A model generated the notes under the pieces. It was not told the DNA's origin, did no database searches, and was given only the letters and a program-made list of their open reading frames with translations. The translations under genes were made by a program, and so were the position numbers. A DNA stretch of 64,000 nt from Naegleria gruberi (lineage: Eukaryota): NCBI GenBank assembly GCA_000004985.1, contig GG738857.1; one strand, written 5' to 3'. How positions within the stretch are numbered: the stretch's first letter is position 1; every line of letters begins with the position of its first letter. This document shows positions 1-57,120 of the stretch, in pieces.

Positions 1-1826
1 AGTTTAACGGGAAACAACAAGCAAAGTTCCGAAGATCATGTCTGGATAAATGGTTTGTATTGTATTGTATAAGAATATGAATTAATTGTTCTTCTTTAGC
101 TTGGTATGATCCTCTTGCTTCCGTTACCTCTCTTTCACAATGTATGATGTTTTCTGATATTAATGGTGATGGAGACTACAAACTTGTGGTAGCTACTGCA
201 AGTAAGAATCCCTTAGAAAGTAAAAAGACAAAACAAGCTCACAGATTGAGAGTCTATAAAGGTACTGGTATTATCAGCGAAAATGTTTTAATGGAGGAAC
301 CTATTGCACTCGCTTCCTACTACACTGACTACTCATCACCTAAAAGACCTATGATTGTCGTCGCAAGTAGTAATCACATTTACTATTACAAAAACCTACA
401 ACCATTCTACAAGTTTACTATGCCGGCAAAGACTACAGAAGAAAAGGAAGTGGAAATTTGGCAATATTTAAAGGAATCTAAATATGATGCCAAGACTGGT
501 TACGCTGAATTAGCAAGACTTAGAGATCATAATATTACTCTTAGTACAAGGAGTTACGAACTTCTTTCTCTTACATCAAATGAAGATATTAAGGCGTTCA
601 TTGATACCAGGAAAAATTTTGCCTTGGAGAGTCCAAATAATATTACAACTCTATCAATTCTTCCAAAAGACAGAGAAGGAGATGACGCAATTGGATGTCC
701 AGTTGTCGGTACAGAGAGCGGAATAGTTTTTATCTTAACTCCCCAAGGATCACAAATCATGAAAGCTGTTCAATTGCCTTCAGCACCTGTAAAATTTTGT
801 ATTGCTGGTAACTATGATAGTGATTATAGAATTACAGCAGCATGTAGAAATGGAAATGTATATACCATTAAAAATGGAGAAGTGAGTGGCGTGGTTATTG
901 AGTTGGAATCTCATCCAGTTTCTATTGTAAAAATAGACAAAACTTTTGCTATTGGCCTTATGAACAATAGTATTCATTGCTACAATACAAGAGGAAAGAA
1001 ACAATACTCTATCTATTTACCATCTAATATTAAGGACATGGAAGTTCTTGAAATGAGAGGCCAACGTAGTGTGAAATGCATAATAGTAGCTATGGAGAAC
1101 AAGGAATTGAGAATTTATAATGGTAAAAATTTGGTAAATAGGATTGAATTATTTGAAAATATTGCCAGTCTCAGATATGGAATATACGGATCTGAGGTTA
1201 ATAGTTTAATCATTTCTTATAGAAATGGCGGTCTTGATTTTAAAGTTATCTCAAGAAAGGCAAGTTTGGAGAGCAAATCCAAAACTGGTCCACCACCAGA
1301 ACAGGAAGAGCCTTTGGATTTACCCTCCAAGACTTTCCTTTATTTGGAACAAACAAAGAGAGAAGTGGATTATTGCTCTGAAATGCATAATGTTTTCCAA
1401 AAAGATTTGGCAAGAATTAGACTTCACACTGCGAGGGCATATGTTAAAATTTTGACAGATGGCCAAGGTCCATTATCTTACACTTCCGGATCCTCTATTC
1501 GCTTGACGGCCCAAGTGCAAGGACTAGGTCCAAAGTTTAAGATTAATATTGAGGTTCAGAATACTGGCAAAAAGTCAATTTCCCAGTTATTCATTCTATT
1601 TGTTTTTAATGAAGATCTTTACTCGGTGGAGGGTGATGCAAGAAGATTGCTTCTTCCTCCTCTTCTTCCAGGACCAGTATACAGATTTAGTAAGGCAGTA
1701 ACCATGCTTGATCCTTTAGTTGCCCCAGAAACAATGAAATTATATGTTTGTAGTAAGGAGAGTCAAACACCTGTAATAACTGCTGTTGTAAATATGCCAC
1801 CAACAGAAATGATTGAATTAGTATAA
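1..1826 (+). CDS. BBS1: Bardet-Biedl syndrome 1 protein (BBS1, BBSome subunit). 5' partial: exon <1..52, intron 53..99 (GTTTGT..AG), exon 100..1826
   Basis: The translation matches BBS1 in several places, e.g. DINGDGDYKLVV vs human HGDGEYKLVV. Other matches: IYYYKNLQPFYKFTMP vs VYVYKNLRPYFKFSLP; AACRNGNVYTIKN vs AACRNGNIYILR; GPPPEQEEPLDLPSKTFLYLEQTKRE vs [33 protein letters not shown]..QNT.. vs QGLGPTF..QNT... The upstream frame stays open to position 1, and the small intron restores WYDPL (human HYDPM). Confidence 0.85.
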
Positions 1827-2334
1827 ACTTTTTATTAATAATTTGAAACTCTATAATTGCCATTTTACCAGAGAATATTACGATTAATTGAGATATGGAA
1901 ATATCATGATTTAACTTCGCAAGCCATAATGTTCATGATCTTAGAATTCTTTTAAATTCACGGTTTTGTTTTTTGGAGTGCTCCCAAAAAGTCATTCTGC
2001 AAACATTGTGATTTCTTCCCAGTGCTCTGTGGAAGCAAAATAGATGTTAATTTGGTTTGGAATCTTTAGTAAGGGTGTTGAAACAACTCAAAAAGCTCTC
2101 TAATTTTAAAAAAAAACCACTGCTAAAATATTTGGGCCCCTAAAGATTCCAAACCAAATTAATATTTATTTTGATGGAATCATTCTTGAGAAGTGATACC
2201 ATCATTCCATTAGAGTGGGTCCAGTCTTTGTGCTATTCTTTGAATCCAAATTTTGAGGAGAAGGACAAATCAAATTGATAAAAATTCTACCATGGCATTC
2301 CTGTGTCAAAAGTGAATTGACGAGTCAACAAAAA

Positions 2335-3500
2335 ATGCGTAAATCAACATCTGAAAAAACTCTTCCAGAAACAATCAACATAAAAAACCCATCCGAAGAT
2401 GAAAAATCCACTCTCCAACAACAAGATTGGTTTTGTGAATTAGTTTCAACCTACACAGAGCACAAGATAAACGCACTTGAGAAGGAAAATCAAAACCTAA
2501 TCCAAAAGTTGTTGGCTCTAACAGTTGATCAACGCTATATTAAATTTCTTGAATCTATTCCTTCATTGATGCAAAAACAACAAGAGCACAACAAACAAGG
2601 AAACTCTGACAATGAGTACAAAAAGTTAAACGAGAAGCTTGATGAAGTAATTGATGATTATGAGGACGTCAAGAGGAAATTAAAAAAAGCAGAAGAGAAT
2701 GCAAAAAAACCAAAGATGCTTTTGTTGAACAGCACTATTATAATGAAGAGAATATTAAAGAAATCACCAGGAAAGAAGAGAAGGTACGTGAAGAATTGGC
2801 TACCTTGAATGGAAAGTACCTTTATGAAAAGGAATCGTTCTTGAAACAAGTGTCCGAGTTAACAAAAGAAAGAGATCAACTAAATGATCAAATTTCAATT
2901 TACAAAACTCGAAATGATCCTGCCTTGCTGATGAATGACTTTTCTGATAACACAGTCAAAAAGATACATGATGAATATGTCACTTTGAAATCACACGATT
3001 TGAATTCTTTTGTGGGAAGAGTAGTTGAAGAACATTCATTAAGTGAAGATCAGGAATTTGATTTTGATTTAAAAATTGTTGCATTTGCATTCAAAACAGT
3101 CCGTAAACTCATTGAAGAAACCTATTCTGAAATGAATTTCGAACTAATTGGCAAGAAACTTACAAATGAAGAATCAGAAAGAAACCGCCTTATTGAAACC
3201 CTCGTCCAGACAATTGCAAAAATGGAAGAAATTGGAAAGAACAAGAAATTACAACAAGCTGCCAGAGAATTTATAACCAAACTCGTGAAATTCTATTGTA
3301 ACATGTTTCTCATTGATAAGAAGCTTGAATTGGTTTGGGCTTCAACTGGATCTCTCTACAATCCTGAATGGTACGATTCAAGAAATGCAACCAGTAACAT
3401 TGTAGTCACTAATGTTTTCAAACCTGCTCTCATGGACACATTCACCAAAACAGTCTACGAAAAAGGAATTGTTGAAACTACCCAAAAAAGGAAAAAATAA
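2335..3500 (+). CDS. Coiled-coil protein, paralog family member P1, with a conserved C-terminal domain. There is an apparent 1-nt frame change near the A7 run at 2702-2710 (ORFs 2275..2808 and 2796..3500 are the same gene)
   Basis: The ATG at 2335 has an A-rich context. It shares the motif NDPAL(L)MNDFSDN and the C-terminal block LELVW...NPEW...PALM with the ORFs 6801..8432 (-) and 8567..9778 (+). The frame of the second ORF stays open back to 2664 and reads as coherent coiled coil (KDAFVEQHYYNEENIKEITRKEEKVREELATLNGK). Confidence 0.55.
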
Positions 3501-3522: not shown

Positions 3523-6500
3523 TTATATTAAAACTCTCTTGTATGTAATTAAATATTCAGGATAGCATTGATTCCTATCATAGATAATATATTCATTGTA
3601 GGTGTGTTGTGATACCGACTTGGATCTTCCAATAACACTGTCATAAACTCTTCCATTTGAGTTTTCAATGACAGGTGGTCTTCTTTCATTTCTCATCTTT
3701 TCCCTTGTTTTGAAAACCATCTGACCTAACAGAACTCTACTGAGAAATATAAAACACTCACCATCCTTATTCGAAACACAATATTGATCACTCTTACTAC
3801 AGCAATCAGCAAAGTATATTCCAGCTCCAAACAAACCACTCAAAGCACTCAATCTTTCATCAAAGCCGTGTTCTGAAATGATTGACTTGACTACTTCTGT
3901 TGTTCCATGCCATAAATAAACTTCATTCACATTGGAATCTAATTCACACATTTCGTCAACAAAATCATTTCTAATTGGTATATCCATTACCTTCTTTTTA
4001 TCCTTATAGGAAATTAGGTGTTTCTTCTTTGATAGATACATTTCATAAAGTGATAAATTCTCAATTCTTTCCACTTTTAGAACTTGTAACTTGTTATATG
4101 GAAATGAATCTTTTTCATGGTTTCGTTTCTTTCCTAATGTAATTGTTACACATGTCTTATCCAATAAATCTTGAATATCCTCTTTTAATTCAGCGGTAAC
4201 ATCTATAATTGACATGTTATTTTGATTTGATTTCCAATAGGAAGGCTTTTGTTTCGTTTCCTTTCTTCTTGTCCCACGAAAGAATTCATGTCTTAATAAC
4301 TCAGATGCAGATAAAGTACAAATTTCTTCACGAATATTAATTGAGTCCATTAGCGTTTTCAAAAGAGATGAATATTCATCGAGTCGTTCCATTGACATGA
4401 TGTCAATTACCATTTTCACGAAACAAAACATTTCTTTCTGGAATGGTAATTTGTTTCCCTTTTCCTCTATTTTCACAACATTATCAAATCCATCCAATAT
4501 TAATTTAACTTGTTCATCTTCAATAATTTTCACATACACATTCGCAGCTCTAATATTTCCATGAACAAATGAATAGGTATGAAAATGATGAATGGCTGAA
4601 AGAATCTGAAACCAAATATCTTCCCATCCTGATCTAATGGATGAAAAATCTTTCAATGTTCCAATTGAGTAATATGGCATAACAATACAAAGTTTATCTT
4701 GACAAAGATAAAATCCAATTAATTCTGCAATATTTGAATGTTTGATTTTCTCTAGAATTTCAACTTGTTCAATTACCATTTCAATTTTATCCAATGAATA
4801 TTGTTTAACACGATAGAAAATATTCGAATTCTTATCAACTGCCTCAATAAGCATATAATTCAGAAATGCAGTTTCACTAATTGTAGTCAATTCCAAAGTG
4901 CTTACATCTTGAATTCCTATAATTTCTGATAGTAAATCATAGAATCCTGATCGATAGAGTGTAATTGATTTGTTTCGAATATCATTTCTGTTAATTTGAA
5001 GAGTTTCGAGTTCAGTTTCTTGTTCCATAATTTTTAGACAGGGCGCAGTTGATGTTGAGTTGTTTGTTTCCCACAATTTTTTCTCAATTTCAATTGATCT
5101 TTTGCGTGCTTCAATGTTCTCACTCATTAATTTGTAATTAATTCCATATTTAGAAATATCAAATTTAGAAATTATTGTTAAAGTTAATTGCATATTTTTA
5201 AATTCATTACAGATGGTAGTAATATTATTGATAAAATCAAGGCAATTATTTTTCATATCATCAATAAAGTAGCAATATCCTTTCAATTTCTTTTTCAATA
5301 AATGATACAATTCCAAATTTGGATTTTCTTTCAATAAGGAAAATAATTTTGAAATGGAATCTCCAATATCATTTGTATCATTGCTTATTTCTGAAAATTC
5401 AAGTGTTGAAATATTACTTGAAAAATTTGAAAGAAAATTTGCAACTCCACTCAATTGCTTATTACATGTATTAATCCATTTCTCCAAATTAGTCGAATAT
5501 TCTTCAAATGTTAATTCCAATTCTTCATAATTCGATATTTCATTACATGGAATTTCTTCTCCACCATTCAAAAATTCATTAATTTCTTTAGAAATTTCAC
5601 TCAAACTCTTTACAAATTCAATAAGAAAATTTCCATAATCACTTTTCTTAATTTGATTATTCATTGATTCATGGATTTGAAATTTGCTTCGAAATTCAAT
5701 TAAATCTTGAGGATTTTGTGATGAATAAATCGATTTTGAATTAATTTGGATAGGGCTGAGAAGATTCTTAATATCTGTAAACTTTTTCATGTCATATTCG
5801 TTAATTATGATATTTCTAATAAGTCTATCAGTGGTAAATCTTATAGTTTCCAATTGATTTTTCCTATTTTTGTATTCGAAACCTAATTGGGAAAGCTCTG
5901 TAAATATTGATGCAAAATGAATGAATTTAATTTCTATTGGAGATGTGCTAGTAGATGCTTGACTCACTTCTACATTAATTTCTTTTGTTTCCACATTAGT
6001 CTTATTTCTTTTTTCAGATTTCATTTCCTTTTGAATCGTTTTTATGGATTTCCCGCCACATTTCAATGCTATTGATATTTTGATATTAGGATGTTCTAAT
6101 AATAATTTTCACAATTTCAATTTTATCTCTTTCGCAAGCAACTTGCAAAGGTGTTTTAACCTTCCAAAATTGGTAAAATAAAAACTTGCAAATTAATACT
6201 TACCATCTTTAATCTTAAAACTCAATTAATTAAATATCAAACTTACATTCTGAATAATTCAATAAATGTATACTCATCATTAACAAGTTACTTACACCCT
6301 TATTAACATCCAATTCATTTGATTCCAATAATAATTTCACAATTTCAAGATGACCATCATAACATGCAATAAACAAACAAGTTTGTTCTGATTCTACACC
6401 ACAAAATGTCTTGAATAACAAGCTAATAAGTATTCATTTTGCTTCAAATCATACTTACTTCATTGACATTGACAAGTGACAGTAAATATTTGACAATCTC

Positions 6501-6782
6501 AACATTTCCACTTCTACAAGCATGATACAATGGAACCTAAACACATTTAACAATATATGATGATATAAAACCTACTCCGATTCTTGGATTTACCTTCTTT
6601 TCTTCTAACAAGTATTTTGTAATTCTTGTTGAATTATTAGAAATTGATTCTTCTAATAGAGTTTTGTTCGAAACAAGAGTTTTTGAAAAATCGGACAAGG
6701 ATTCAGCTAATGAAATGAATTGCTCTAAATTATCACTTGAAATTGACGAGATTACTTTCTTCTCAAGTTTCTTTTTCAACAT
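3523..6782 (-). CDS. Ankyrin-repeat / pseudokinase-like / PARP catalytic domain protein (tankyrase-like ADP-ribosyltransferase). Exons on the minus strand: 6782..6594, 6536..6459, 6409..6296, 6160..3523, with an apparent 1-nt frame slip at the T4 run 6106-6109
   Basis: The C-terminus (LWHGT...GAGIYFAD...HTYNEYIIYD...YPEYLITYK) matches PARP1 LLWHGS...GKGIYFAD...LYNEYIVYD...YLLKLKF, with an intact H-Y-E triad. The central region is kinase-like but has HGN in place of HRD and DGF in place of DFG. The N-terminal exons encode ankyrin repeats (VPLYHACRSGNVEIVKYLL; TCLFIACYDGHLEIVKLLLES; KTPLQVACERDKIEIVK). Minus-strand GTAAGT donors and AG acceptors were located by hand. Confidence 0.8.
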
Positions 6783-6800: not shown

Positions 6801-8432
6801 TTAATTCTTTTTTGACACTCTGACAATTACTTTTGCCTTCTCATAAATACTTCTCGATTGCAACTGCATTAGGGATGGAAAGACTGTGCACTGAATCTTT
6901 GGAATGGTTGTGTTATTTCTTGCATCTTGTTCGTATGGATTAAAATTGTCCTTTGCTTTATACCAAACGAATTCCAACTTTTTTGAATTGGTAAACATTT
7001 TCATGTAGAGTTCAATTGCCTTATCAAGTAATTCTGAGGTTAGATTACTAACTTCCCGATCTCTACAAATATGCTCAGGATTCTCAACTTTGAATTTGTT
7101 GAAAACGTGTTCAATGGAGGTGAAAATCTCATTGTGGCAGCTTTTGAGTAGTTTTTTCTTATCTGAATCTTCCAATGGCTTGCATCCATAACCTAATTTC
7201 TTGTCTTTCAATCTGTGTTGTAATGATTTGCCCTTATTGTCGTCTTGAGCTGGTGAAAAGAGGTATTTGGCTAATTCCATTTCAATTTCACATTCAAAAT
7301 CTTGTGCTACATCATCTCCATTAAGATTTTCACTCATTTCTTCACAAAGAGAACCCAATGAATTCTTAATTTCAAAATAAGCATCCTTAATTGACTTGGT
7401 GGTATTGTCGGAGAAATTGTTCATCTCAAGAGCTGGATCATGTTCTGCTTTGACAATTCTAAAATTATCTTCAAGTTGAGCAATCTTTGATTCTAAACCA
7501 TTTTTCAGTTCGATTAGTGCTTCTTTTTCTTTCTCAAATCTTGATTGGTTTTCACTTGCTTCGGTTCTCATTCTGTTTTTATCCTTTTCCAGATTTGAGA
7601 TTTTACTTTCAAGAGATTGAAGGTTTGCCTGGAGTTCAAGTGTGTCATTTTTAAGATCCTTATTATCACTTCTCAAATCTTCAAGCTTTTTGGTTGTATT
7701 TTTGTGGCTGTCTTGTTCAGTCTTCAACTTTTGTTTAGTTTCATCATGTTCACTTCTCAATTTGTTGAAATTCTTTTCTAAAGTGTCCTTTTCCTTCTTG
7801 AGATCTGTAAATTCTTTTTTCTTTGTATTCAATTCAGTAATCTTTTGATCTTTTTCACTAACCAATTGCTTTTCACGGTTCTGCAAATCATCATTTTCTT
7901 TCTTTAATTTCTTCTCATTATCTCTTGCTTCATTGCTTTCTTTGGTTAATTTTTTAATTCTTTCATCTTGATTTTGGGATTTTTCTAATGAGATTGATTT
8001 AAGGAATTCAACAAGTTTCTTATCAACTTGTACAGTGTCTAATATGTCTCTTAATCTGTCAACTTCCTTGGTATGCTTTTCTGACTCTTCCTGGATGTGG
8101 TTAACTTTGTTTTTTTCCTTATCAAGATTACTTTGGAGAATAGAAACTTGTTTTCTTTGACTCTCTAAATCTTGTTTAACCTTGTCAAGTTCGTGTTGGA
8201 GGATTTGTGCTACATTCTTTTCCTGGTCCCAATTACTTTGCAGATTGGAGGTTGTTAGCTTTTCTTTATTAAAGGCCTCTTCAATTGACTTGAGTTGAGT
8301 TTGAAGTTGTGAAATTCTTTTTTGATAATGGGAGGGATCTACTTCTTGTGTTGGGGGTGGAACATCACTTGTTGGTTGTTGTTGGGGTTTGATGGTGGAT
8401 GATGGTTTATTTGAATTGGATTCGTTTGTCAT
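6801..8432 (-). CDS. Coiled-coil protein, paralog family member P2, with a conserved C-terminal domain
   Basis: It is a long heptad-rich ORF (K/E/L/Q) with the motif HDPALEMNNFSDN and the C-terminal block LEFVWYKAKDNFNPYEQDARN...FPSLM, shared with P1 and P3. The ATG at 8432 has an aaaaaaaATG context. Confidence 0.6.
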   Translation of the reverse strand: MTNESNSNKPSSTIKPQQQPTSDVPPPTQEVDPSHYQKRISQLQTQLKSIEEAFNKEKLTTSNLQSNWDQEKNVAQILQHELDKVKQDLESQRKQVSILQSNLDKEKNKVNHIQEESEKHTKEVDRLRDILDTVQVDKKLVEFLKSISLEKSQNQDERIKKLTKESNEARDNEKKLKKENDDLQNREKQLVSEKDQKITELNTKKKEFTDLKKEKDTLEKNFNKLRSEHDETKQKLKTEQDSHKNTTKKLEDLRSDNKDLKNDTLELQANLQSLESKISNLEKDKNRMRTEASENQSRFEKEKEALIELKNGLESKIAQLEDNFRIVKAEHDPALEMNNFSDNTTKSIKDAYFEIKNSLGSLCEEMSENLNGDDVAQDFECEIEMELAKYLFSPAQDDNKGKSLQHRLKDKKLGYGCKPLEDSDKKKLLKSCHNEIFTSIEHVFNKFKVENPEHICRDREVSNLTSELLDKAIELYMKMFTNSKKLEFVWYKAKDNFNPYEQDARNNTTIPKIQCTVFPSLMQLQSRSIYEKAKVIVRVSKKN

Positions 8433-8566
8433 TTTTTTTAAAGACGTACGAAAATTTGACGAGTTGTAATGTAATTTTGAAACCTGCATTCCGTGTTCCG
8501 TTCTGTGAATTGACGAGTCATCATTCACTTGTCAAATGTTTAACTATCAAACAAATAATCAAAAAA

Positions 8567-12116: not shown

Positions 12117-13901
12117 ATGTCATCATCAACTGTTCCTGTTCGTTCAGGTTCCCTCAACAAGAAGAAAGTTGTCATTTCCATTGATTTTGGTACATCAAGA
12201 ACTGGTTTCTGTTATTCACTCACCAATGATGTGAAAAAGACTCGAGTTAAGAATACCTCATGGAAAGATGCACCAAGTGGAGTTTCATTCCCAAAGACTC
12301 TCACTCAATTACTTTATGAAAAGAGTGATACAAGAAAACCTGTTGCTTGGGGTTACACTTCACTTGACATGTTGTCAAGAGAATTTGAAGATGAGAGTGA
12401 ATCTGATGAAGATGAAGAAGGTGGTGAAGAGATTCCAGCACAAAATAGCAAGTATTATCATTTCAAGACATTCAAAATGGGATTATTCAATAATCCATCT
12501 GGTATGGTGAAGGATACAACTGGTGTTTTTGAAAAGAATGTTGGTGAATTGATAGTTGACTATTTGAAATTATTATTCCATGATCAGATTAAGCCAACTG
12601 TTGAGAAATCATTGGGATCTAAATTGAATCTTGATGAAGTTACTTGGTGTTTAACAGTTCCAGCCATTTGGAAAGATGAACAAAAATCAGATATGAGATT
12701 AGCTGCTTACACTGCTGGTTTAACAAAGACACCTGAAGCATCTTCTGATGATTTTAAGATTATTCTTGAACCAGAAGGAGCTGCTGCTTATTGTATGGAA
12801 TATCAAGCTTCTAAAGGTAAACCATTGAGAGAGGGCGAATCATTCCTTGTTTGTGATCTTGGTGGTGGTACAGTTGACTTGACATGTCATAAATTTGAAA
12901 AGGCAAGATTGAGAGAATTAGCTGAAGGATCTGGTGATGCATGTGGTTCTACATATTTAGATGATGCTTTTATTATTTATTTGGAAGAATGTTTTGGTAA
13001 GAAATTTGTTGAAACCTTAAGGAAAAAGTATGGCCAAACTTATTTGGACATTTTAAAGATTTGGGAAAGAACAAAAGTTACAACAACAGATTTAACAAAA
13101 GATATTAATGTTGATATGCCTGGTCAATTAAGTAGTTTTTTAGAAAGTGCCAATGTTAAAAGTGATAAATTCAGAGCTAAAAGAGGTCAACTCAAAATTA
13201 CAAGTGAAGCTTTACAAACAATTTATCAAGATTCATTAGAAAAAACAAGAAATCTTGTTGAAAAGCAATTAGAAACAATCCAATCAGAGACTGGTAAAAT
13301 GGTTGATTATATTTTCATAGTTGGTGGTTTTGGTGCTTCCAAAGTAGTTCAAAACTTTCTAATTGACAATTTCTCTTCACAAGTTAAGGGAATTGTAATT
13401 CCAAATGAACCTGCTGAAGCTGTTGTTGATGGTGCTGCATTATTAGGTATTGATGATTCATTAATTTCAACACGTAGAATGAGAATGACTTATGGAGTTA
13501 AAGCTCAAAAAGGAAGTGAAGAAATATTCGATACTTTTGTAATTGCTAATCAAGAACTTGAAGTTGATCAAGGAATTTCAAGAGAATACAAAGTTCAAAG
13601 AGCTAATCAACAAGCTATGAAAATAATCATCTACAGCACTAAATTGAAATCAATTACAAAAGTTGACGAAACTAAATGTCATAAGATTGGTGAAATTCAA
13701 GTACATATGACAGATATGACAGGTGGCATGGATAGAATAGTGAAAGTTACAATGTATTTTGGTAGATCAGAAACTAGAGTTACTGCCATTGAAAAGAATA
13801 CTGGAATTGAGTATAGTGCATTAATTAAGTATGATGGTGAATTATTTTCACATGGTGAAAGTATTGCTGACACTCCACCAGTTCAACCTCACCATTTGTA
13901 A
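12117..13901 (+). CDS. HSPA12-like Hsp70-superfamily ATPase, paralog B (single exon)
   Basis: VISIDFGTSRTG, WCLTVPAIWKDEQKSDMRLAAYTAGL, ILEPEGAAAYC, FLVCDLGGGTVDLTCHKF, YIFIVGGFGASK and RMTYGVKA are colinear with the human HSPA12A motifs. The ATG has an aaaaaaaATG context. Confidence 0.8.
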   Translation: MSSSTVPVRSGSLNKKKVVISIDFGTSRTGFCYSLTNDVKKTRVKNTSWKDAPSGVSFPKTLTQLLYEKSDTRKPVAWGYTSLDMLSREFEDESESDEDEEGGEEIPAQNSKYYHFKTFKMGLFNNPSGMVKDTTGVFEKNVGELIVDYLKLLFHDQIKPTVEKSLGSKLNLDEVTWCLTVPAIWKDEQKSDMRLAAYTAGLTKTPEASSDDFKIILEPEGAAAYCMEYQASKGKPLREGESFLVCDLGGGTVDLTCHKFEKARLRELAEGSGDACGSTYLDDAFIIYLEECFGKKFVETLRKKYGQTYLDILKIWERTKVTTTDLTKDINVDMPGQLSSFLESANVKSDKFRAKRGQLKITSEALQTIYQDSLEKTRNLVEKQLETIQSETGKMVDYIFIVGGFGASKVVQNFLIDNFSSQVKGIVIPNEPAEAVVDGAALLGIDDSLISTRRMRMTYGVKAQKGSEEIFDTFVIANQELEVDQGISREYKVQRANQQAMKIIIYSTKLKSITKVDETKCHKIGEIQVHMTDMTGGMDRIVKVTMYFGRSETRVTAIEKNTGIEYSALIKYDGELFSHGESIADTPPVQPHHL

Positions 13902-17413: not shown

Positions 17414-18790
17414 TTAGTAACTTTCTATTACACACGCTTTTAAAGATGAAATAATTATTTCAAATTGTTGTGAACAATTAATATTATGATTTCTTTCTTT
17501 GCAAAATTCAATTAATGGAATAAAATTAGCAAGAAAATGAGTTGTAAAAAGAGATCTCTCACCAATTTCAGTTTTAAATTCATTCTCCAAATTGCTAGAA
17601 TCACAGCAATCGTCACAAATATCAAATGAATCATAACCATCCACTGTTGATTGATAAAATCCTGAACATGTTTGATCACATATTTTACATGTCTTTGTTG
17701 ATTCAATTTTAAAAATATCAAAATTATTTCCATACTTTTGTTTCATGTTTGGAATCAAGTTACTTATTTCTGATGGTAAATGATTTAATAATTCAAAATA
17801 TTGTAAAAATTCAACAATACTTCTTCCTACACATGTCAATTTGTGATCATTTAGGTATGATTTGATTAACCATTTTAGTGATTCTTCCATATTTGGCAAT
17901 GTACCAACACCAACACAATACATGTAAGCTACTCCATATTGTGCAAAGCAATAGTTTTGTTTGGCTGATTTTAACAACCATTCAAGTCCAAGTTTTAAAT
18001 CTTTTTCATAATATTCACCAGAATAGTAATAAATACCAATCCAATATTGAGCTAAACAATTTCCATTTCCAGCAGATTTGAAATACCAATCTGTTGCTTT
18101 TTTGAACTCTTCATTAAGTCTATAATGTCTAGCGAGTTTATGTTGATATTTACTATTTCCTAATTCAGCTCCTTTTAAAAGCCATTTTTCTTTCATTTCT
18201 GATGAATTTTTGTTTAATTTTTTCATTTTCTTTATGGCAGGAAAATAATTTAATTCTGCTGATTTTTCCAAAAATGTAATATCCTTATTATATAAATAAA
18301 TTAAATAGTTAAAAATTGGATTATTGGTTTGTTTGGCACATTTTTTATAAACCTTGTTCAATTTAATTCTACTTTTAATATTTGGTAAATCAATTTCAAA
18401 TTTTTTTAATTGTTTAATAATTGAATTTGGAGAAATAATTAATTTTTCCAATACTTTTAAACTAAAATCACCACTTAAATATAATTTTTCCAATTTTGTA
18501 AATAATTTACAATTAAAAATAGTTTTTAACATTTCAGTATTTACATTATTAAAACTACATTTACAAATTTGTAATACTATTTGACTATTACAAAATTTTT
18601 CCATATCCGAAAGTGAAACAAAACGTGTAGAAACCATTTTCAATTTTAAATAGTAATAAATAGACATATCAGACCAATATTTACAAACAAGTCTATGAAC
18701 CAACCATTCATTTGGTAGATAACTTGAAATGTGTGCTAAAATCTCAGGTGGAATTTCATCATTGAAATTTCGTTTTGATAAATTAGACAT
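17414..18790 (-). CDS. F-box / Sel1-like repeat / ZZ-type zinc finger protein
   Basis: The N-terminal IPPEILAHISSYLPNEWL is an F-box. The middle has Sel1/TPR-like repeats (AQYWIGIYYYSGEYYEKDLKLGLEWLLKSA; AQYGVAYMYCVGVG). The C-terminal Cys cluster CKICDQTCSGFYQSTVDGYDSFDICDDCC is ZZ-like. It is a single exon with an aaaaaaaATG start. Confidence 0.7.
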   Translation of the reverse strand: MSNLSKRNFNDEIPPEILAHISSYLPNEWLVHRLVCKYWSDMSIYYYLKLKMVSTRFVSLSDMEKFCNSQIVLQICKCSFNNVNTEMLKTIFNCKLFTKLEKLYLSGDFSLKVLEKLIISPNSIIKQLKKFEIDLPNIKSRIKLNKVYKKCAKQTNNPIFNYLIYLYNKDITFLEKSAELNYFPAIKKMKKLNKNSSEMKEKWLLKGAELGNSKYQHKLARHYRLNEEFKKATDWYFKSAGNGNCLAQYWIGIYYYSGEYYEKDLKLGLEWLLKSAKQNYCFAQYGVAYMYCVGVGTLPNMEESLKWLIKSYLNDHKLTCVGRSIVEFLQYFELLNHLPSEISNLIPNMKQKYGNNFDIFKIESTKTCKICDQTCSGFYQSTVDGYDSFDICDDCCDSSNLENEFKTEIGERSLFTTHFLANFIPLIEFCKERNHNINCSQQFEIIISSLKACVIESY

Positions 18791-21247: not shown

Positions 21248-22992
21248 ATGTCAGGTTTTTCATCACAATCTATTCAAGCATCACTTGTTAGACCATCCAA
21301 ATATAGACATTTAAATGGATTTGAAACTAAAAGTGAGAGATATGAAAATATTAATGTTGGTTATGGTCAAAAATTAAGTAATACATTAAAAACCAATGGT
21401 TCAATCTATGCATTACCATTTAATGTAACAGGTGGTACTTTATCATTTAAATATTTAAATGATTATGGTAGATGGGATGAAAAATTACAAAATTATGGAA
21501 TTATTAAGGCTCACAAGGGAAGATTATCAGATTTTGATATTTCCCCTTTTAGAAATAGAGATCATTTAGTAACTGTTTCTAATTCTGATAATATTATTAG
21601 ATATTGGAAATTACCTACAAATAATAATGATAATGATAATAATAGCAATGATATTTCTTCTTCTAATATTACTTCTACTAATACTTCCAATATAAATGGT
21701 AATAATACTATATATAGAACCTATGAAGAAATGGATTGTGATTTGGAATTAAATGATACAAATAATACAAAATCAACTATTAGTAGAATATCATTTAATC
21801 CACTTGTTGATAATTCACTTGTTAGTATTCAAGGAGATTTAATCCATTTTTGGGATGTTGAAAAAAAGAAAATTTTAAATTCAATTCAAAATTTACCAAA
21901 TCCATCAATTTCTAGTAAAACATTACCAACAGTTGAAAGTTTAGGATGGAATGAATATGGTAATTTATTTATATGTGGTACAAATGATCGTTCCATTAGA
22001 ATTTATGATATTAGATTATCTTCCAATTATAGTAATAATAATAATAATAATAATAATCAATCTAATAATCAACAAATATGTATAACTGAAGGACATTCAA
22101 GTATGAAACCATTTCAAACATTATATTGTGAAAATATGTATATATGTAGTGTTGGATTTTCTAAAAATGGAGGTAGAGAATTAGCCATGTATGATATTAG
22201 AAAAGATTTGAAATGTTTACAAAGAATTTCCATTGATAATGGTGGTTCAGTTTTAACACCATTTTATGATTCAGATATTAAATTACTATATTTAGTAGGT
22301 AGAGGAGATGGTAATATTAGATTTTATGAATTAGAAGGTGGTATTATGCATTATTTAAATGATTATAATTGTCAATCTACATCTGCATCTGTTGATTGGT
22401 TACCAAAATGGAAATTAAATGTTAATAATTTTGAATTGGCTAAATTTTTAAGATTAACAAATGAAAAAACAATTGAAACTCTTTCAATGAGAGTTTCTAG
22501 AAAATCAAATATTGAACAATATTTTCAAGAAGATATATTTCCAGATACTTGGAATGGTCAACCTATTTATAATAATACTAATCAATGGTTAAATACTATT
22601 ATTAATAATAATACTACTTCTATTAATAATAATACTATACAAAGTAATATTAATAATAGTAATGGTAATGGTAATGAAAATTTGAATGAAAATGAATTAT
22701 TACAAACTAGACCAACCATGTCATTAAAACCATCTGATAAAATATCTATCTATGATGTACCTATTAGTGAAGGTGGTAAAATTAGACCATCCACTACTAA
22801 TTTAAGTAAATTACATTCATCATCATCTTTAAATAGTATTGAAAATACTCCAACTACTACATTAGATACCCCAACTACTATTACAAATTATAATACAAAT
22901 GAACAAGTTGATGATGAATTTAAAGATTTAAATGAAAATCAACAATTTGATGACAATGAAGAAGAAGAAGAAGAATTAATTACCATTAATAC

Positions 22993-23023
<31 letters not shown>

Positions 23024-26000
23024 GAACATAATCATAATAATTTTAATGATTTAAATGATATAGATTCATTAATGTCACCAACAGAAGCAACTTCCAAATC
23101 CATTTCCATTGGATTAGTTTCTAGTTTAGGTAAAAATGTAGCACTTGCATCAGCTCATATTCCATGGTATAAAAGAATTACAATGGGAATGGGTTATTAT
23201 TTAGGAATGGCAATGTTTTTAATATTTAAATTTACATTCATTTCAATACCTGTTTGGGTTTATCGTAAATCTACTGGTTACACTCCTCCACCTATTAAGG
23301 AACGTTTCGAACAAGTACCTGTTATTAAGGTTATTAAGAAACCTTCAAGAAAAGTTTCATCAAATATCAATTCTTCTACAAGTGTTAAACGTAATATTGT
23401 TGGTGGTGGTGCTAATACTAATAATAATAATACTGATAATAATAATATAACACCTACTACACCAAATGATTATATTAAATCATCAGTATCTAATACATCA
23501 TTATCATTAACTCCACAAACTCCAAGTGGTAGCGGCAATAATTTAATCATTTCAGATCCACTTGCAAGTGAATCAAGTCGATTACTATCACGTGAATATG
23601 GTAGAATTATTATGGAAGAATATATTGGTAAATTAACTAAAGAAGATATATTTCCTAAAAGAGCACATGATAAAGATACCAATCTAAAACAAGTTCTTGA
23701 AATTGATGTAGTTGACTTGAAAAAAGGTCTCACTCATGTACTAATTTGGGTAAAAGGACGTAAAAAATCGAGAGCAACACTTGCACCACTTTATTGGACA
23801 AGTTTAAATCATAATGATTGTTTCATTTTGGATTGTGGTAAAATTTGTTACATTTACAATGGACAATATTCTAACAAATTATGTAGAGCTAAAGCATTAG
23901 ATATTTCACAAATGATTAAATATAAGGAAAGAGGTGGTGATTGTCAAGTTGTAATTATTGATGGTATTGATTATTCTAATAATGGAAATAATTCTAATAA
24001 TAATTCTAATAACAATGACATGACACCATTATATAAAAAACAAGTATTACAATTTTGGAAAGAATTAGGATTAACAAGTGAAAATGAATTTTGTGAATTA
24101 TTAAATATTCACTTTCCTAAAAAGGAAGATTCTAGTAGTAGTAGTAATAATAATGTATTAAACAGATTAAAATTAACAGATAAATCTAAATTTACATCAA
24201 AAGATGAATTAAATGATGATTTATATCAACAATTTAATGATTTAGGTCAAAGATTATATAAATTAAATTCAGAAATCTTTGAAGAACTTCCACTAAAAAT
24301 AGAATTAAATGAAACACAAGATGAATACATAGAAAGAATATCACCATATATGTTAAGTGTTATAAAATTAAATCAAATACCAGGTGGTGAAATTGTAAAT
24401 TTAAAAGAATTAGAAAATTTATTAAATAATGAAAAGAATTTAATTGATCCAAATAAGGTATCAGAAATTACACAACCATCACATCATGTTTTACATTCTG
24501 ATCAATGTTACATTTTTGAAAGTTTATTTACAAATGAAGTTTTCTTTTGGAGTGGAAAACAAAGTAATTTAAATATTAGAAAATGGGGAATTGCTATTGC
24601 TAAAAAATTAGCACAATATAGATCTTTAAATAATAATCCATTTTCATTGAAAAATCCAATTTTACAACGTTTTAAATCTATTTTAAATAATTCTATTAAT
24701 ATTACTATAAATGGAAGTAATTCTATAAATGGAAATCAATTACCTAATAATAGAAAATATTTATCATCCATTACACGTGTTATAGAAGAAGGTGAACATT
24801 CTATTTATAAACAAAAATTTAGTGATTATCCAGGAATGTTAATGATTCAAACACAATCACAAGAATCACGTGGAAATGTTGCAGAAAAAAAGAAACAATC
24901 AAAAATTAATTTTTTAGAATTATTAAAATCTAAAAATAATTTAAAAGAAGAATTAAAATCTAATTCACAAAAACAATTTATTGATCCAACTTTAGTAACT
25001 ACCATATATAGTAGTAAAATTAGAATGTGGAGAGTGAGTGATTTTCAAAAAATACCATATCAACATTTAGGTCATTTCTTTACAGGTGATGCATTTATTA
25101 TTTTATTTACCTATACAAAAATAGAAGGTGGTAAATCTTTCCATAAATTATTCTTTTGGCAAGGAAGAGATATTAAAAAGAAAGATAAAGGAACATCTGC
25201 ATATAAAACTGTTGAAATTAATGAAATGATTGATGAAGGTGTTGTAGAAAATCAAATTAGAGTTGTACAAGATAAGGAACCTAAACTATTTTTAGATTTA
25301 TTTAAATTTAACCCAAATAGTATGGAAGAGAGTACTACTATTGAAAATGATAAACATTATAAGAAGGTACCTTATTTTATTCATAAGGGTAAATATAGAC
25401 CTTCTGTTTTGGAATCTTTTGAAAAGGCTAACAAATTATCTTCTATTATTGGTAATATTTCTAATAATAATAATAATGGAAATATTAATCCAAAATCATC
25501 ACCATTACCAAAATTAAATATTTCTAATAATACAAATGATAATAATAATACAAATAATACCACTACAACTACACCAACAACACCTACAATTTCAAATGAT
25601 GAAGAAATGAATCTTGCACCTGTTAAATTATTTACTTCCATAAATGGAAATTTAGATGAAAATGAAAAATTTTCACCTCAAATTTTACAATTCCAAACAG
25701 AAATGATTGAAAGAATAATTTCTAAAAATATAAAATTAGAATATTTAAAATCCTATGATTTTAGAAATGGAATTTTATGTGAAACTGATGATTTACATCC
25801 AAATTATTTAAATCCATTTAATTTAATAATTTTTTCAAATTTAAATTTTAATGTTTATTTAAATAGAATTGAACTAAATAAGGAAATTGAACAAGATGAT
25901 TTAAAAACTATTATTTATTATGGAAAATATTGTAAAGAATCTGATAAGAAATTTATTGAAAATAATGTTTTAAATTTATTTAATAATAATAATATAATTA

Positions 26001-26908
26001 CTATAAATGGAAATAATCAAGAATTATTAGAAAATGTATTTACTAAGGAAATTGATCCAACATTTGAATATTTTATTTCTAGATTTAATAATTATTTAAA
26101 TACTTTTGAATTTAAAAATAATTATAATATTTCCTTTTATAATATTAATGATCATTCAGGTGAATTTACTTTAAATAGATTGGATCCATTTGGTGAAATT
26201 GATTTATCTTCTTCACAAGCCTTTATTTTAGATTGTCTTGATTTAGAAGGTAAAATCTATGTTTGGATTGGAATGTTATGTAATATTGAAACAAAGAAAT
26301 TTGCACTTTCAACTACCATTCAATATTACTATACATGGAAATCACAAACTTGTAATGATGAATTTTATAAGAAGAAACCTCAAAATGATGACATGGATGA
26401 TTTTGATCCAAGTAAATTTTTACAAAAATCAGATGAACAATCATTACTTGTCATTCAAGAAATGGAAGAACCACAAGAATTTACAAAACATTTCATTTCA
26501 TGGTCAATTAATTCAACTTCATTCAAAGTTAGATTTAAACAATTACAAGATCCAAATTTAATTTCAAAGGGTTTTGTTAAAACACCAAGAACTCCAAGAA
26601 GATCAAATATTAATGTTCAAATTTCTAAACATGAAAAGAATTTATTTGAACATTCTTCATCCATTTTTGAAATTGAACATTGTTCAAATGTTTTACAATT
26701 ATATAACAAATTATTTACTCACAAAACTTATAGTTATGCAATTTTAACAAGTGGTGCAAATATTCCAGAAGGTATTGATAAATCTAAATTAGAATCTTAT
26801 TTATCAAATGAAGAATTCCAAAAAGTATTTGGAATGGATAAAAAGAAATTTGCTACTTTACAAAATTGGAAACAAACCTCTTTGAAAAAGGAAAAGAATT
26901 TATTTTAA
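21248..26908 (+). CDS. Villidin-like giant actin-binding protein: N-terminal coronin-type WD40 domain, long low-complexity linker, several gelsolin repeats and a C-terminal villin headpiece (1886 aa, single exon)
   Basis: The N-terminus has the coronin signature RPSKYRHLNG plus WD blades. Gelsolin repeats include LNHNDCFILDCGKICYIYNGQYS, IRMWRVSDF..GDAFIIL..FFWQGRD..IRVVQDKEP and LDPFGEIDLSSSQAFILDC. The C-terminal LSNEEFQKVFGMDKKKFATLQNWKQTSLKKEKNLF is a villin headpiece (cf. [35 protein letters not shown]). This architecture is known from Dictyostelium villidin. Confidence 0.85.
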
Positions 26909-55152: not shown

Positions 55153-57120
55153 ATGGTTACACTGTTACCCACACATTCTAATAATATTTCATCCACTAGT
55201 AGTAGTAGTATTGGTATTGGCAGTGGATCATCTTCCACTTTTACCAATAGAACATTTTCTAAATTATATTTCAATATTAGAAAATTAACATTTAAACAAC
55301 AATTTATTATTATCATTTCATTATTATTGGTATTTTACTTGATTTATACTTTATTATTTGTTGGTTCAATGTCATCATCTACTGCTATTATTGATGGTCA
55401 ACAACAACAACAACAACAATTAAAATCAGATCCAAATATTGAAAGTTTATTAATTAAACAACCAGTCATTACCACTCCACAAACACCAGACATTGTACAA
55501 TTTAAGAAACAACAAGAACAACAACAAGAATTAAAACCACTCACAAATAATAATAATAATAATTTAAAGAAGAATGATAAACAACAACAACAACAACGAG
55601 AACAACAACAACAACAAATTGAAAAGAAACAAAATAATGAACATTTGAATGAAAAGAAGAATAAGAAAAAGAAGAAAAAGGTTCCAAAGGAATATAATCC
55701 ATTTGATTATCCTGATGATGATTTTACACATAATCCACTTCATCATGCAAAGGAGAATGATAAATCTTCAACAACACAATCTACTATTACTACCACTACT
55801 CCATCAAATACTAAATCTACAACAACACAACCAACTACTACTGCCACAAATAACAAACAAAGTAAACAAACAACTACAACAACAACAACAACTGAAGGTG
55901 GTAATGATAGTAAGTTAGCAACAACAACTACAACAACAACTGCAGATAAGAATAAGAAGGAAGAAATATTGAAACAACAACCAATTGATTTTGATGAATT
56001 GGATGAATTAGATGATAAGAAGAGTAATGTACAAGATACTAATAGTATAGTTGGTGCACCAGATAAAAAAGAAGAGAAAACACAAGTACAACAACACAAA
56101 GATATTACTGATGATGATACCTATCATGATGATAATTTAAATCACGATGAAGAATTGTTCAATGAAAAGAAAAAGAAAGTTGAAAAATTATTAAACAAGG
56201 AAATTAAACAAGATAATGATAAGAATACTCCGACTACTCCTGCTACTCCTAAAACTGCAGAAGTCAATAATAAGCTAGAGAAAGATTCAACTCTTCAAAA
56301 TACTAAAACTAATTCAGCATCCGAAAAGAATTCAAAGAAATCTGAAAAGAATGAAGATAATGTTATTGTAAAGAAATCTGAAAAGATTGAAGAAAAGAAA
56401 ATTGATCCAATGATTGATGATGATGACGATGTTATTATTGTAAAGAATTATCAACAAATTGAAGATGAGAAACCATCCAATACTGGAGAAACTAAACCTC
56501 TCATTACTGAAAAGAAAGATAATCAAGAACCTGTGAAAAAGAAGGAAAACGAAATTGCTGAAAAGAAGGACAAGACAAAAGAAGACAAGAATGAAAAGAA
56601 AAATATTGAAACCAATGAAAAGAAACCAGATATTACCGATAACAAGTCTTTAAATAAGAAGGATGAAAAGAAGGATTCAATTATTGTTGAAAACAAATCA
56701 AATGATAAGAAGAAACCAGAAGAAAAACCAGCAACCGAAGTCAAGAAGATTGAAAAGAAACCAGAAGAAAAGGAAGATAAATCAATTAATAATCAAAAGA
56801 CCACCACAACTGCCAATGCAGATAAAAAGCAAGAGGCCTTGGTTGACAACAAATCCTCTAATACCAAGTCAAATGAAAAGAAAGATACTGCTACAGCTCC
56901 AAAGGATTTAACTGATAAGAAAGTTAAGGAAGCACCAAAACAATCAAAGAAGAATTCCAAGAAGGATTTGAGATCACCTAGAAAACCAATTGATACCAAG
57001 AAACAAAAAGCAATTGATGACCAAACTAAAGTAATAACAAAGAAATTAGAAGATGGTGTAAAGAAATTGAAAGAATCAAGAGTTTTGGATGAATTTCTCG
57101 AGGATGAAGAACCTTTATAA
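55153..57120 (+). CDS. Hypothetical Lys/Glu/Thr-rich protein with an N-terminal signal-anchor helix
   Basis: It has an A-rich ATG context, a TM helix (FIIIISLLLVFYLIYTLLFVG) and then 600 aa of K/E/T/Q low complexity. It is probably lineage-specific. Confidence 0.4.
   Translation: MVTLLPTHSNNISSTSSSSIGIGSGSSSTFTNRTFSKLYFNIRKLTFKQQFIIIISLLLVFYLIYTLLFVGSMSSSTAIIDGQQQQQQQLKSDPNIESLLIKQPVITTPQTPDIVQFKKQQEQQQELKPLTNNNNNNLKKNDKQQQQQREQQQQQIEKKQNNEHLNEKKNKKKKKKVPKEYNPFDYPDDDFTHNPLHHAKENDKSSTTQSTITTTTPSNTKSTTTQPTTTATNNKQSKQTTTTTTTTEGGNDSKLATTTTTTTADKNKKEEILKQQPIDFDELDELDDKKSNVQDTNSIVGAPDKKEEKTQVQQHKDITDDDTYHDDNLNHDEELFNEKKKKVEKLLNKEIKQDNDKNTPTTPATPKTAEVNNKLEKDSTLQNTKTNSASEKNSKKSEKNEDNVIVKKSEKIEEKKIDPMIDDDDDVIIVKNYQQIEDEKPSNTGETKPLITEKKDNQEPVKKKENEIAEKKDKTKEDKNEKKNIETNEKKPDITDNKSLNKKDEKKDSIIVENKSNDKKKPEEKPATEVKKIEKKPEEKEDKSINNQKTTTTANADKKQEALVDNKSSNTKSNEKKDTATAPKDLTDKKVKEAPKQSKKNSKKDLRSPRKPIDTKKQKAIDDQTKVITKKLEDGVKKLKESRVLDEFLEDEEPL

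Follow-up and report, generated by a model that had tools for sequence, protein, structure and literature searches.

A pseudokinase-PARP protein of Naegleria gruberi is probably a kinase-dead member of a protist kinase-PARP family

What does a locus encode in which ankyrin repeats, a kinase-like domain, and a poly(ADP-ribose) polymerase (PARP) catalytic domain follow one another on the same strand, and do the three parts belong to one protein? The question was raised by positions 3,523 to 6,782 (minus strand) of a 64,000-nucleotide (nt) stretch of Naegleria gruberi DNA (assembly GCA_000004985.1, contig GG738857.1), referred to below as the window. A preliminary description had proposed a single four-exon gene carrying all three domains. 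The DNA of the window is AT-rich, with a G+C content of about 22-35%, and the PARP gene region has ~28% G+C. We found that all three domain types are present at their proposed positions, by Pfam and, for the kinase and PARP parts, also by AlphaFold2 (AF2) modelling with Foldseek, but their union in a single gene was not borne out, as the public gene model begins at 6024 and the two reading frames involved are +1 apart. The gene that this model describes, NAEGRDRAFT_47537, probably encodes an ADP-ribosylating pseudokinase-PARP, a degenerate and kinase-dead member of a protist kinase-(coiled coil)-PARP family.

The open reading frame (ORF) at 3523-6066 on the minus strand consists of 847 codons and is 100% identical to the public 833-residue protein XP_002679562.1 (EFC46818.1; NAEGRDRAFT_47537; JGI 47537; UniProt D2V8J6), which is called 'predicted protein' at NCBI and 'Poly [ADP-ribose] polymerase' at UniRef. 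The public model is a single exon that starts at ATG 6024 and has no ankyrin repeats; in tblastn, residues 1-833 mapped to 6024-3526 at 100% identity, and no further copies of the PARP gene were detected inside the window. The precomputed Pfam annotation of D2V8J6 already holds PF00069, PF07714, and PF00644. The kinase and PARP content of the protein is visible in public resources, and the protein is uncharacterised. Residue numbers given here are those of the 833-residue protein unless the 847-codon ORF is named. The parts are arranged as a disordered and helical N-terminus, a pseudokinase, a short linker, and the PARP catalytic domain (Table 1). Residues ~1-100 are predicted to be disordered and are followed by long helices in the AF2 model, which was built from a 30-sequence family alignment; residues 1-380 had no Pfam match, while residues 222-380 are homologous to the helical region that precedes the kinase in Naegleria paralogues.

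The C-terminal domain belongs to the PARP/ARTD superfamily. PF00644 matched residues 653-843 (847-codon ORF) with an E value of 2.4e-25 and 89.7 bits, the Pfam cut-off being 26.7 bits, and the region opens with a 'PxYW' motif that is conserved across the family. Among solved structures, the top sequence match was the catalytic domain of tankyrase-1 (4w5s_A; E 1.9e-16), followed by PARP12, PARP15, and PARP10, and a Foldseek search of the PDB with the PARP part of the model returned TNKS2, PARP15, and PARP10 with target TM scores of ~0.8. LWHGT, GAGIYFA, and YNEYIIY were aligned with LFHGS, GAGIYFA, and YAEYVIY of tankyrase-1, and therefore H706, Y737, and E811, which lie in the motifs WHGT (705-708), GIYFA (735-739), and NEYIIYD (810-816), constitute the H-Y-E triad. 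In the 30-sequence family alignment, the residues H706, Y737, and G733 never vary, and conservation is at least 90% for G707, T708, F738, and E811; the triad is also kept wherever a 9-sequence family alignment covers its positions. The GxGxYFA and SKSDQY motifs of the NAD site, which vary little or not at all across the family, are present as well. The catalytic residues pointed out in the preliminary description are all in place, but its prediction of poly- or oligo-ADP-ribosylation went too far. The H-Y-E triad is needed for chain elongation and does not guarantee it, and human PARP3 and PARP4 are H-Y-E enzymes that mono-ADP-ribosylate. Poly- and mono-ADP-ribosylation activity of XP_002679562.1 cannot be told apart from the sequence.

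The middle region adopts a protein kinase fold, as had been suspected. Pkinase matched residues 409-523 (847-codon ORF) with E 2e-10 and 40.9 bits (cut-off 31.7 bits), PK_Tyr_Ser-Thr matched with E 1.6e-10 and 41.2 bits (cut-off 23.1 bits), and the region is homologous to the relatives over the whole domain. This part of the AF2 model had a predicted local distance difference test (pLDDT) score of ~80-90, and Foldseek returned the kinase domains of STK33, PAK1, and PAK4 at E values of ~1e-9 to 1e-10 and target TM scores of ~0.6. In the family alignment the domain has degenerated further than the two altered motifs first noticed. Only the β3 Lys (K407) and N495 are kept among the hallmarks, while the αC Glu is changed to Q420, the catalytic Asp to N490, the catalytic-loop Lys to R492, the Mg-binding Asp to G512, and the αF Asp and Gly to E531 and V536. 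In addition, an activation segment of ~25 residues including APE is deleted, as is the coiled-coil linker of the relatives. HGN does stand for HRD at 488-490. The letters DGF proposed in place of DFG do occur at 511-513, but the register was off, since the family alignment sets G512-F513-D514 at the family D-F-D position. With the αC Glu, the HRD Asp, the catalytic-loop Lys, the DFG Asp, and the APE segment all lost, the sequence describes the domain as a thorough pseudokinase.

An exhaustive HMMER scan across 1.84 billion cluster representatives returned 4780 proteins at E<=1e-3, of which 60 reached E<=1e-30. The best family matches came from Naegleria (N. lovaniensis XP_044552390, N. fowleri XP_044563143 and XP_044563812, and N. 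gruberi XP_002672366), and the next from transcriptome proteins of Apiculatamorpha, Nolandella, Didymoeca, Hanusia, Hartaetosiga, Bicosta, and Rhynchopus. Pfam placed Pkinase N-terminal to PARP in 8 of the 9 top matches, and the kinase-PARP architecture spans Naegleria, amoebozoans, cryptophytes, choanoflagellates, and diplonemids. The N-termini of the top relatives vary and contain a staphylococcal nuclease domain (SNase), a WD40 propeller, or 24 DUF4116 repeats. XP_002679562.1 shares its module order with XP_044563143 (SNase-kinase-PARP), XP_044563812, XP_044552390, and the EukProt proteins of Nolandella, Hanusia, Apiculatamorpha, Hartaetosiga, and Rhynchopus; the helical region, the kinase fold, and the H-Y-E PARP domain with its 'PxYW' opening follow in the same order. 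Homology to the Naegleria relatives begins at residue 222 and extends to the C-terminus: in BLASTP, the N. lovaniensis protein P0003 aligned with residues 222-582 (E 1e-29) and 594-830 (E 1e-55), and another relative, P0008, matched residues 415-831 in a single stretch. Because this homology covers the pre-kinase helices, the kinase, and the PARP domain, the sequences identify the kinase as the ancestral architecture of the clade and not as an insertion. With a kinase hidden Markov model (HMM) built from five top relatives, 39 of the 152 nearest family proteins (151 listed representatives and P0152) showed a kinase domain, and none of the 151 representatives has ankyrin repeats. The idea that an unusual pseudokinase had been inserted into an ankyrin-PARP protein is thereby reversed, since it is the ankyrin repeats that are the outlier.

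Most members of the family look kinase-active in the 30-sequence alignment (A2), where the β3 Lys is kept in 27/30 sequences, the αC Glu in 26/28, the Asp of H-C-D in 25/29, the catalytic-loop Lys in 23/29, and the Asn in 27/30. D-F-D replaces DFG, with its first Asp in 26/30, and APE and the αF DxxxxG motif (29/30) complete the signature. Most relatives thus have HCDIKPxN, DFDxS, APE, and a coiled-coil linker of ~60-100 residues, all of which are missing from XP_002679562.1, and by this comparison the N. gruberi protein appears as a decayed member. A search for N. gruberi paralogues with an active kinase, using P0004 as the query, was dominated by matches to SNase-Tudor proteins. Kinase decay has also occurred independently in relatives: A2 shows HGN in P0011, HGG in P0019, and HAN in P0036, and the N. 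lovaniensis protein P0003 lacks APE and shows a K-to-T change in its catalytic loop. The H-Y-E triad is intact in these four kinase-decayed proteins. Other members of the clade have no kinase; inspected by eye, P0035, P0072, and P0095 contain PIF1-like or UPF1-like helicase regions together with NFX1-type zinc-finger-like segments, which suggests that the PARP clade is highly modular.

The resemblance to tankyrase, which the preliminary description had raised, is partial. Tankyrase 1/2 (PARP5a/b) provides the top sequence match among solved structures, has an aligned H-Y-E triad, and likewise has neither a WGR nor a helical regulatory (HD) domain; N-terminal ankyrin repeats are possible at the N. 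gruberi locus. In contrast to tankyrase, XP_002679562.1 showed no SAM domain in Pfam at E<=1 and has no CHCC zinc site: the tankyrase zinc segment CPTHKDRSCYIC faces CVSNKDGECFI and a gap in the alignment to 4w5s_A, and the site reads C-N-C-gap. Tankyrase has five ankyrin repeat clusters, whereas the N. gruberi locus has at most 4 repeats, which, unlike those of tankyrase, are separated from the PARP domain by a helical region and a kinase fold. These differences in the SAM domain, the zinc motif, and the arrangement of ankyrin clusters led us to reject a tankyrase (PARP clade 4) identity. The human mono-ADP-ribosyltransferases PARP7/10/12/14/15 have H-Y-I/L/T/Y instead of H-Y-E and carry WWE, CCCH, or macro accessory domains and no kinase. 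Their likeness to XP_002679562.1 lies in the same kind of N-terminal extension opening the catalytic domain, in the Foldseek TM scores of ~0.8 to PARP15 and PARP10, and in PARP12 as the second-best PDB sequence match; an N. gruberi paralogue also carries the name 'TCCD-inducible-PARP-like'. These enzymes belong to clade 3 of Citarelli et al. (2010; PMC2964712), who analysed six N. gruberi PARPs (58866, 71853, 72525, 80022, 80603, and 81181). Gene 47537 is absent from that survey and kinase fusions are unmentioned in it; 72525 and 80603, short proteins with H-Y-E kept and no known N-terminal domains, were left without assignment to any of the six PARP clades. By their motifs (RDQQVRMNYSK..., NEKYLWHGT, and YREFIVYDKCQCYPEF; PMC2964712 supplement), these two belong to the same sub-clade as XP_002679562.1, which differs from them by its kinase-fold domain. 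Perina et al. (2014) reported ankyrin and PARP combinations in N. gruberi, in other clades, and mentioned no kinase fusions. No description of kinase-PARP fusion proteins was found in the literature that we searched, within which the family appears to be widespread and yet undescribed.

For the pseudokinase, the best kinase matches in PDB searches with XP_002679562.1 were RAD53, PAK4, and STE20-like kinases, and searches with an apparently active member returned generic STE, TKL, and CAMK kinases with no closer affiliation. Specific kinship to MLKL, RIPK, or IRAK was rejected on these generic matches. A likeness to MLKL-type pseudokinases can be drawn as an analogy only: MLKL and XP_002679562.1 have in common the pattern in which HRD becomes HG(K/N) and DFG becomes GF(E/D), and in both a helical region lies ahead of the pseudokinase, with convergent loss and no specific sequence relationship.

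Several points weigh against a kinase-dead, ADP-ribosylating protein. The PARP domain is apparently an active ADP-ribosyltransferase, a view taken only from its conserved residues, and nucleotide binding or catalysis of another kind persists in some pseudokinases that have lost comparable residues. The overall quality of the AF2 model is medium, with a mean pLDDT of 69 and a predicted TM score (pTM) of 0.41; pLDDT is ~80-95 over the kinase and PARP parts. No biochemical or expression data for any family member were found in the literature searched. Finally, identity to the closest relatives is no more than 27-48%, and these relatives are not syntenic. The best-match locus of N. lovaniensis (L001) has TFIIS, DcpS, and CLASP neighbours and shares only the PARP gene with the window, and only ~300 nt are available upstream of its PARP gene.

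The relation between the ankyrin repeats and this gene was examined at the level of the gene model. The upstream exons (Table 1) encode genuine ankyrin repeats, and they are unannotated. With the best splice signals they form a 151-residue product of four repeats that ends at TAA 6086-6088, and the assembled exons matched Ank_2 with E 9.5e-26 and 90.6 bits; the 25-residue peptide of exon 4 alone matched Pfam Ank with E 0.005. When these splice sites are used, the main ORF lies in the +1 frame relative to the ankyrin frame. From 6108 onward the main-ORF frame has no stop and overlaps with the last part of the ankyrin frame. Its translation, LLEHPNIKISIALK, extends repeat 4 to a full unit of 33 residues and lifts the Ank_3 score of the repeat from 16.9 to 20.1 bits. 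The suspected site of a 1-nt frameshift is the ATTATTATTA run at about 6097-6106; removal of one base from this run yields a continuous ankyrin-helical-pseudokinase-PARP protein of 1005 residues. The four joined exons of the preliminary description could be reproduced as an in-frame 983-residue model with GT...AG borders, but this does not use the best splice sites. It takes a weaker donor, G|GTGTAAGT at 6297, and passes over the perfect GTAAGT that lies two bases further on at 6295, and its 202-nt intron removes the intact coding segment of repeat 4, with the Ank_2 score at 57.3 bits. The intron at 6161-6295 holds three GTAAGT hexamers (6295, 6246, and 6203) between AG-terminated segments; these could reflect nested or alternative introns or decayed micro-exons.

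Two readings of these data stand at the front. One takes the locus as a single ankyrin(x4)-helical-pseudokinase-PARP polypeptide of ~1005 or 983 residues, with the extra base of the ATTATTATTA run as an assembly error, the 6297-to-6096 splice, or a +1 shift at UCC-UAA-U as possible routes; in that case, target recruitment would fall to the ankyrin repeats, as in tankyrase. The other takes it as two tandem genes, a four-repeat ankyrin protein of 151 residues (6782-6086) and the 833-residue pseudokinase-PARP (6024-3523), a state that would either be original or stem from a genuine 1-nt insertion that recently split one gene. The ankyrin exons share the strand of the ORF and adjoin it directly, and for 28 codons ahead of ATG 6024 the main-ORF frame has no stop ('LEHPNIKISIAL'); there it continues the ankyrin repeat across the junction and adds 2-3 bits to the HMM score of repeat 4. 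Both observations, together with the clean 1005-residue ORF created by a single-base deletion (junction sequence 'IVKIILEHPNIK') and the availability of an in-frame four-exon model with GT...AG borders, argue for one protein, and the ankyrin ORF is not annotated as a separate gene either. The support from frame continuity is, however, modest, because 28 stop-free codons would arise by chance at this composition in ~9% of cases by our estimate, to which the 2-3 bit gain in score is added. For two genes speak the termination of the natural splice model at TAA 6086-6088, the start of the reference model at 6024, and the relatives, which have no ankyrin repeats; in addition, several same-strand ORF pairs in the window lie only 31-65 nt apart, and therefore the 62-nt gap is unexceptional. 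Against one protein, neither the ankyrin exons nor the junction occur in database proteins or assembled transcripts: in a collection of 5.8 billion protein sequences the exons had no close match, only generic metagenomic ankyrin proteins at 33-45% identity, and exact look-ups of the 833-residue and 847-residue products returned no other contigs and no transcript-derived ones. The four-exon model is further burdened by the bypassed donor and the spliced-out ankyrin segment noted above.

A single polypeptide and two tandem genes are about equally likely, each at somewhat below even chances. On balance, the ankyrin repeats and the main ORF probably were contiguous once. Their link to the present-day protein would require a frameshift correction or an atypical splice. 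The ankyrin frame ends with ACA UCC UAA U (6086-6094), and a +1 shift exactly there leads into the main-ORF frame; the +1 frameshift site of antizyme, UCC UGA U, resembles UCC UAA U. A simple 1-nt insertion upstream explains the continuity at the protein level better than +1 frameshifting at this site.

That the whole locus is a decaying pseudogene with its domain signatures as relics is very unlikely. The heavy degeneration of the kinase with deletion of the activation segment and the coiled-coil linker, the frameshift at the ankyrin junction, and the missing syntenic orthologue in N. lovaniensis would fit decay, but 833 codons are uninterrupted in AT-rich DNA, where stops are frequent, all near-invariant PARP residues are kept, and AF2 folds both domains at pLDDT 80-95. 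The stop-free 833-codon ORF in a region of ~28% G+C argues that the gene is maintained. Even less credible is a kinase-like domain that remains an enzyme of a non-canonical kind, through migrated catalytic residues (D511 beside G512, E419 beside Q420) or AMPylation-type chemistry. In its favour, K407 and N495 are kept, acidic residues lie one position from two lost ones, and 'active pseudokinases' have precedents (reviewed in PMC10211241), but seven independent hallmark positions deviate and the activation segment that would bind substrate has been deleted completely, APE included.

The PARP gene is flanked by two inverted coiled-coil paralogues (2275-3500, plus strand; 6801-8528, minus strand) that are 27% identical over ~240 residues (E 9e-23). 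Their common C-terminal domain has a weak likeness to MIEAP ('mitochondria-eating protein'; PF16026, E 3e-4), which is below the cut-off. A mobile element or a recent duplication was rejected for this pair on its 27% protein identity and the lack of long inverted repeats in the DNA; since no inverted repeats are seen at the DNA level, an old duplication is the better account. Genes in the window are closely spaced. The convergent stops at 3500/3523 are 22 nt apart, those at 57120/57127 and 60332/60356 are comparable (convergent gaps of 7-24 nt), and the ankyrin frame begins, at ATG 6782, a mere 18 nt past the stop of the same-strand gene ahead of it (6801-8528). This packing implies overlapping or near-absent untranslated regions. 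Further features of the window are included in Table 1; the presence of BBS1 fits the flagellate stage of Naegleria.

Table 1. Positions of the pseudokinase-PARP gene, the ankyrin exons, and other features in the window
Feature	Position	Strand	Evidence or remark
Stop codon of PARP ORF	3523-3525	-	
PARP catalytic region, residues 594-833	3526..4245	-	Pfam PF00644, PDB sequence match, family alignments, AF2/Foldseek
E811 codon	3592-3594	-	
Y737 codon	3814-3816	-	
H706 codon	3907-3909	-	
Pseudokinase domain, residues ~381-583	4276..4884	-	Pfam, 30-sequence alignment, AF2/Foldseek
HGN codons (residues 488-490)	4555-4563	-	
N-terminal region, residues 1-380	4885..6024	-	tblastn, BLASTP, AF2
Open reading upstream of annotated ATG, main-ORF frame, 'KLLLEHPNIKISIALKCGGKSIKTIQKE'	6025..6108	-	three-frame translation
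Ankyrin exon 4, repeat 4, 'VKTPLQVACERDKIEIVKIIIRTS' followed by stop	6086..6160	-	splice model, translation
Intron 3, 135 nt, GTAAGT...GAAG	6161-6295	-	
Ankyrin exon 3, repeat 3, 'TFCGVESEQTCLFIACYDGHLEIVKLLLESNELDVNKG'	6296..6409	-	splice model, Pfam
Intron 2, 49 nt, GTAAGT...CAAG	6410-6458	-	
Ankyrin exon 2, repeat 2, 'VPLYHACRSGNVEIVKYLLSLVNVNE'	6459..6536	-	splice model, Pfam
Intron 1, 57 nt, GTAAAT...TTTAG	6537-6593	-	
Ankyrin exon 1, N-terminal capping-type repeat, ATG 6782	6594..6782	-	splice model
BBSome subunit BBS1	144-1826	+	PF14779 E 3.5e-76, BBS1 GAE domain
34-nt inverted repeat, 94% complementary, 70-nt spacer	2036-2069 / 2140-2173		between BBS1 and MIEAP-like gene
Divergent Hsp70-like ORF	12117-13901	+	PF00012 E 1e-14
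F-box and Sel1-repeat protein	17414-18790	-	
1886-residue single ORF, villidin-like actin-binding giant	21248-26908	+	coronin-type WD40 propeller (DUF1899, WD40_4), gelsolin repeats, C-terminal villin headpiece

Returning to the pseudokinase-PARP, we propose that its C-terminal domain binds NAD+ and transfers ADP-ribose onto protein acceptors, with at least mono-ADP-ribosylation expected and chain elongation possible because the H-Y-E triad is intact. The kinase domain would no longer be able to phosphorylate, because it has lost the catalytic base, the catalytic-loop Lys, the Mg-binding Asp, the αC Glu, and the entire activation segment. Its most likely role is that of a folded regulatory or docking module that places substrates or partners for the PARP domain, and it may associate with active kinase-PARP paralogues by way of the helical region they have in common, possibly by dimerisation. 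If joined, the ankyrin repeats may recruit substrates as they do in tankyrase. As a matter of speculation, the variable sensor-like N-termini of the family (SNase, WD40, LRR-like, DUF4116, and the helicases of kinase-less members) could point to signalling or conflict-related roles.

For the annotation of the locus, the analysis draws attention to four ankyrin exons that are not annotated and to a 1-nt error or a gene fission that may have occurred at 6097-6106. A bolder and rather doubtful version of our proposal is a 'two-writer' protist family, composed of a Ser/Thr kinase and an H-Y-E PARP with swappable SNase, WD40, LRR, or DUF4116 N-termini, whose N. gruberi copy is a single ankyrin-pseudokinase-PARP protein with a captured ankyrin module, by way of an assembly error or a +1 shift at UCC-UAA. 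Such a single protein, if true, would represent a convergent tankyrase-like, substrate-recruiting ADP-ribosyltransferase in Heterolobosea. The occurrence of a kinase often on the same chain as PARP across several eukaryotic supergroups suggests that phosphorylation and ADP-ribosylation are physically coupled. In N. gruberi, this arrangement occurs in a naturally 'kinase-dead' form, and its contrast with the apparently active N. fowleri protein XP_044563143 would test the contribution of the kinase to PARP function.

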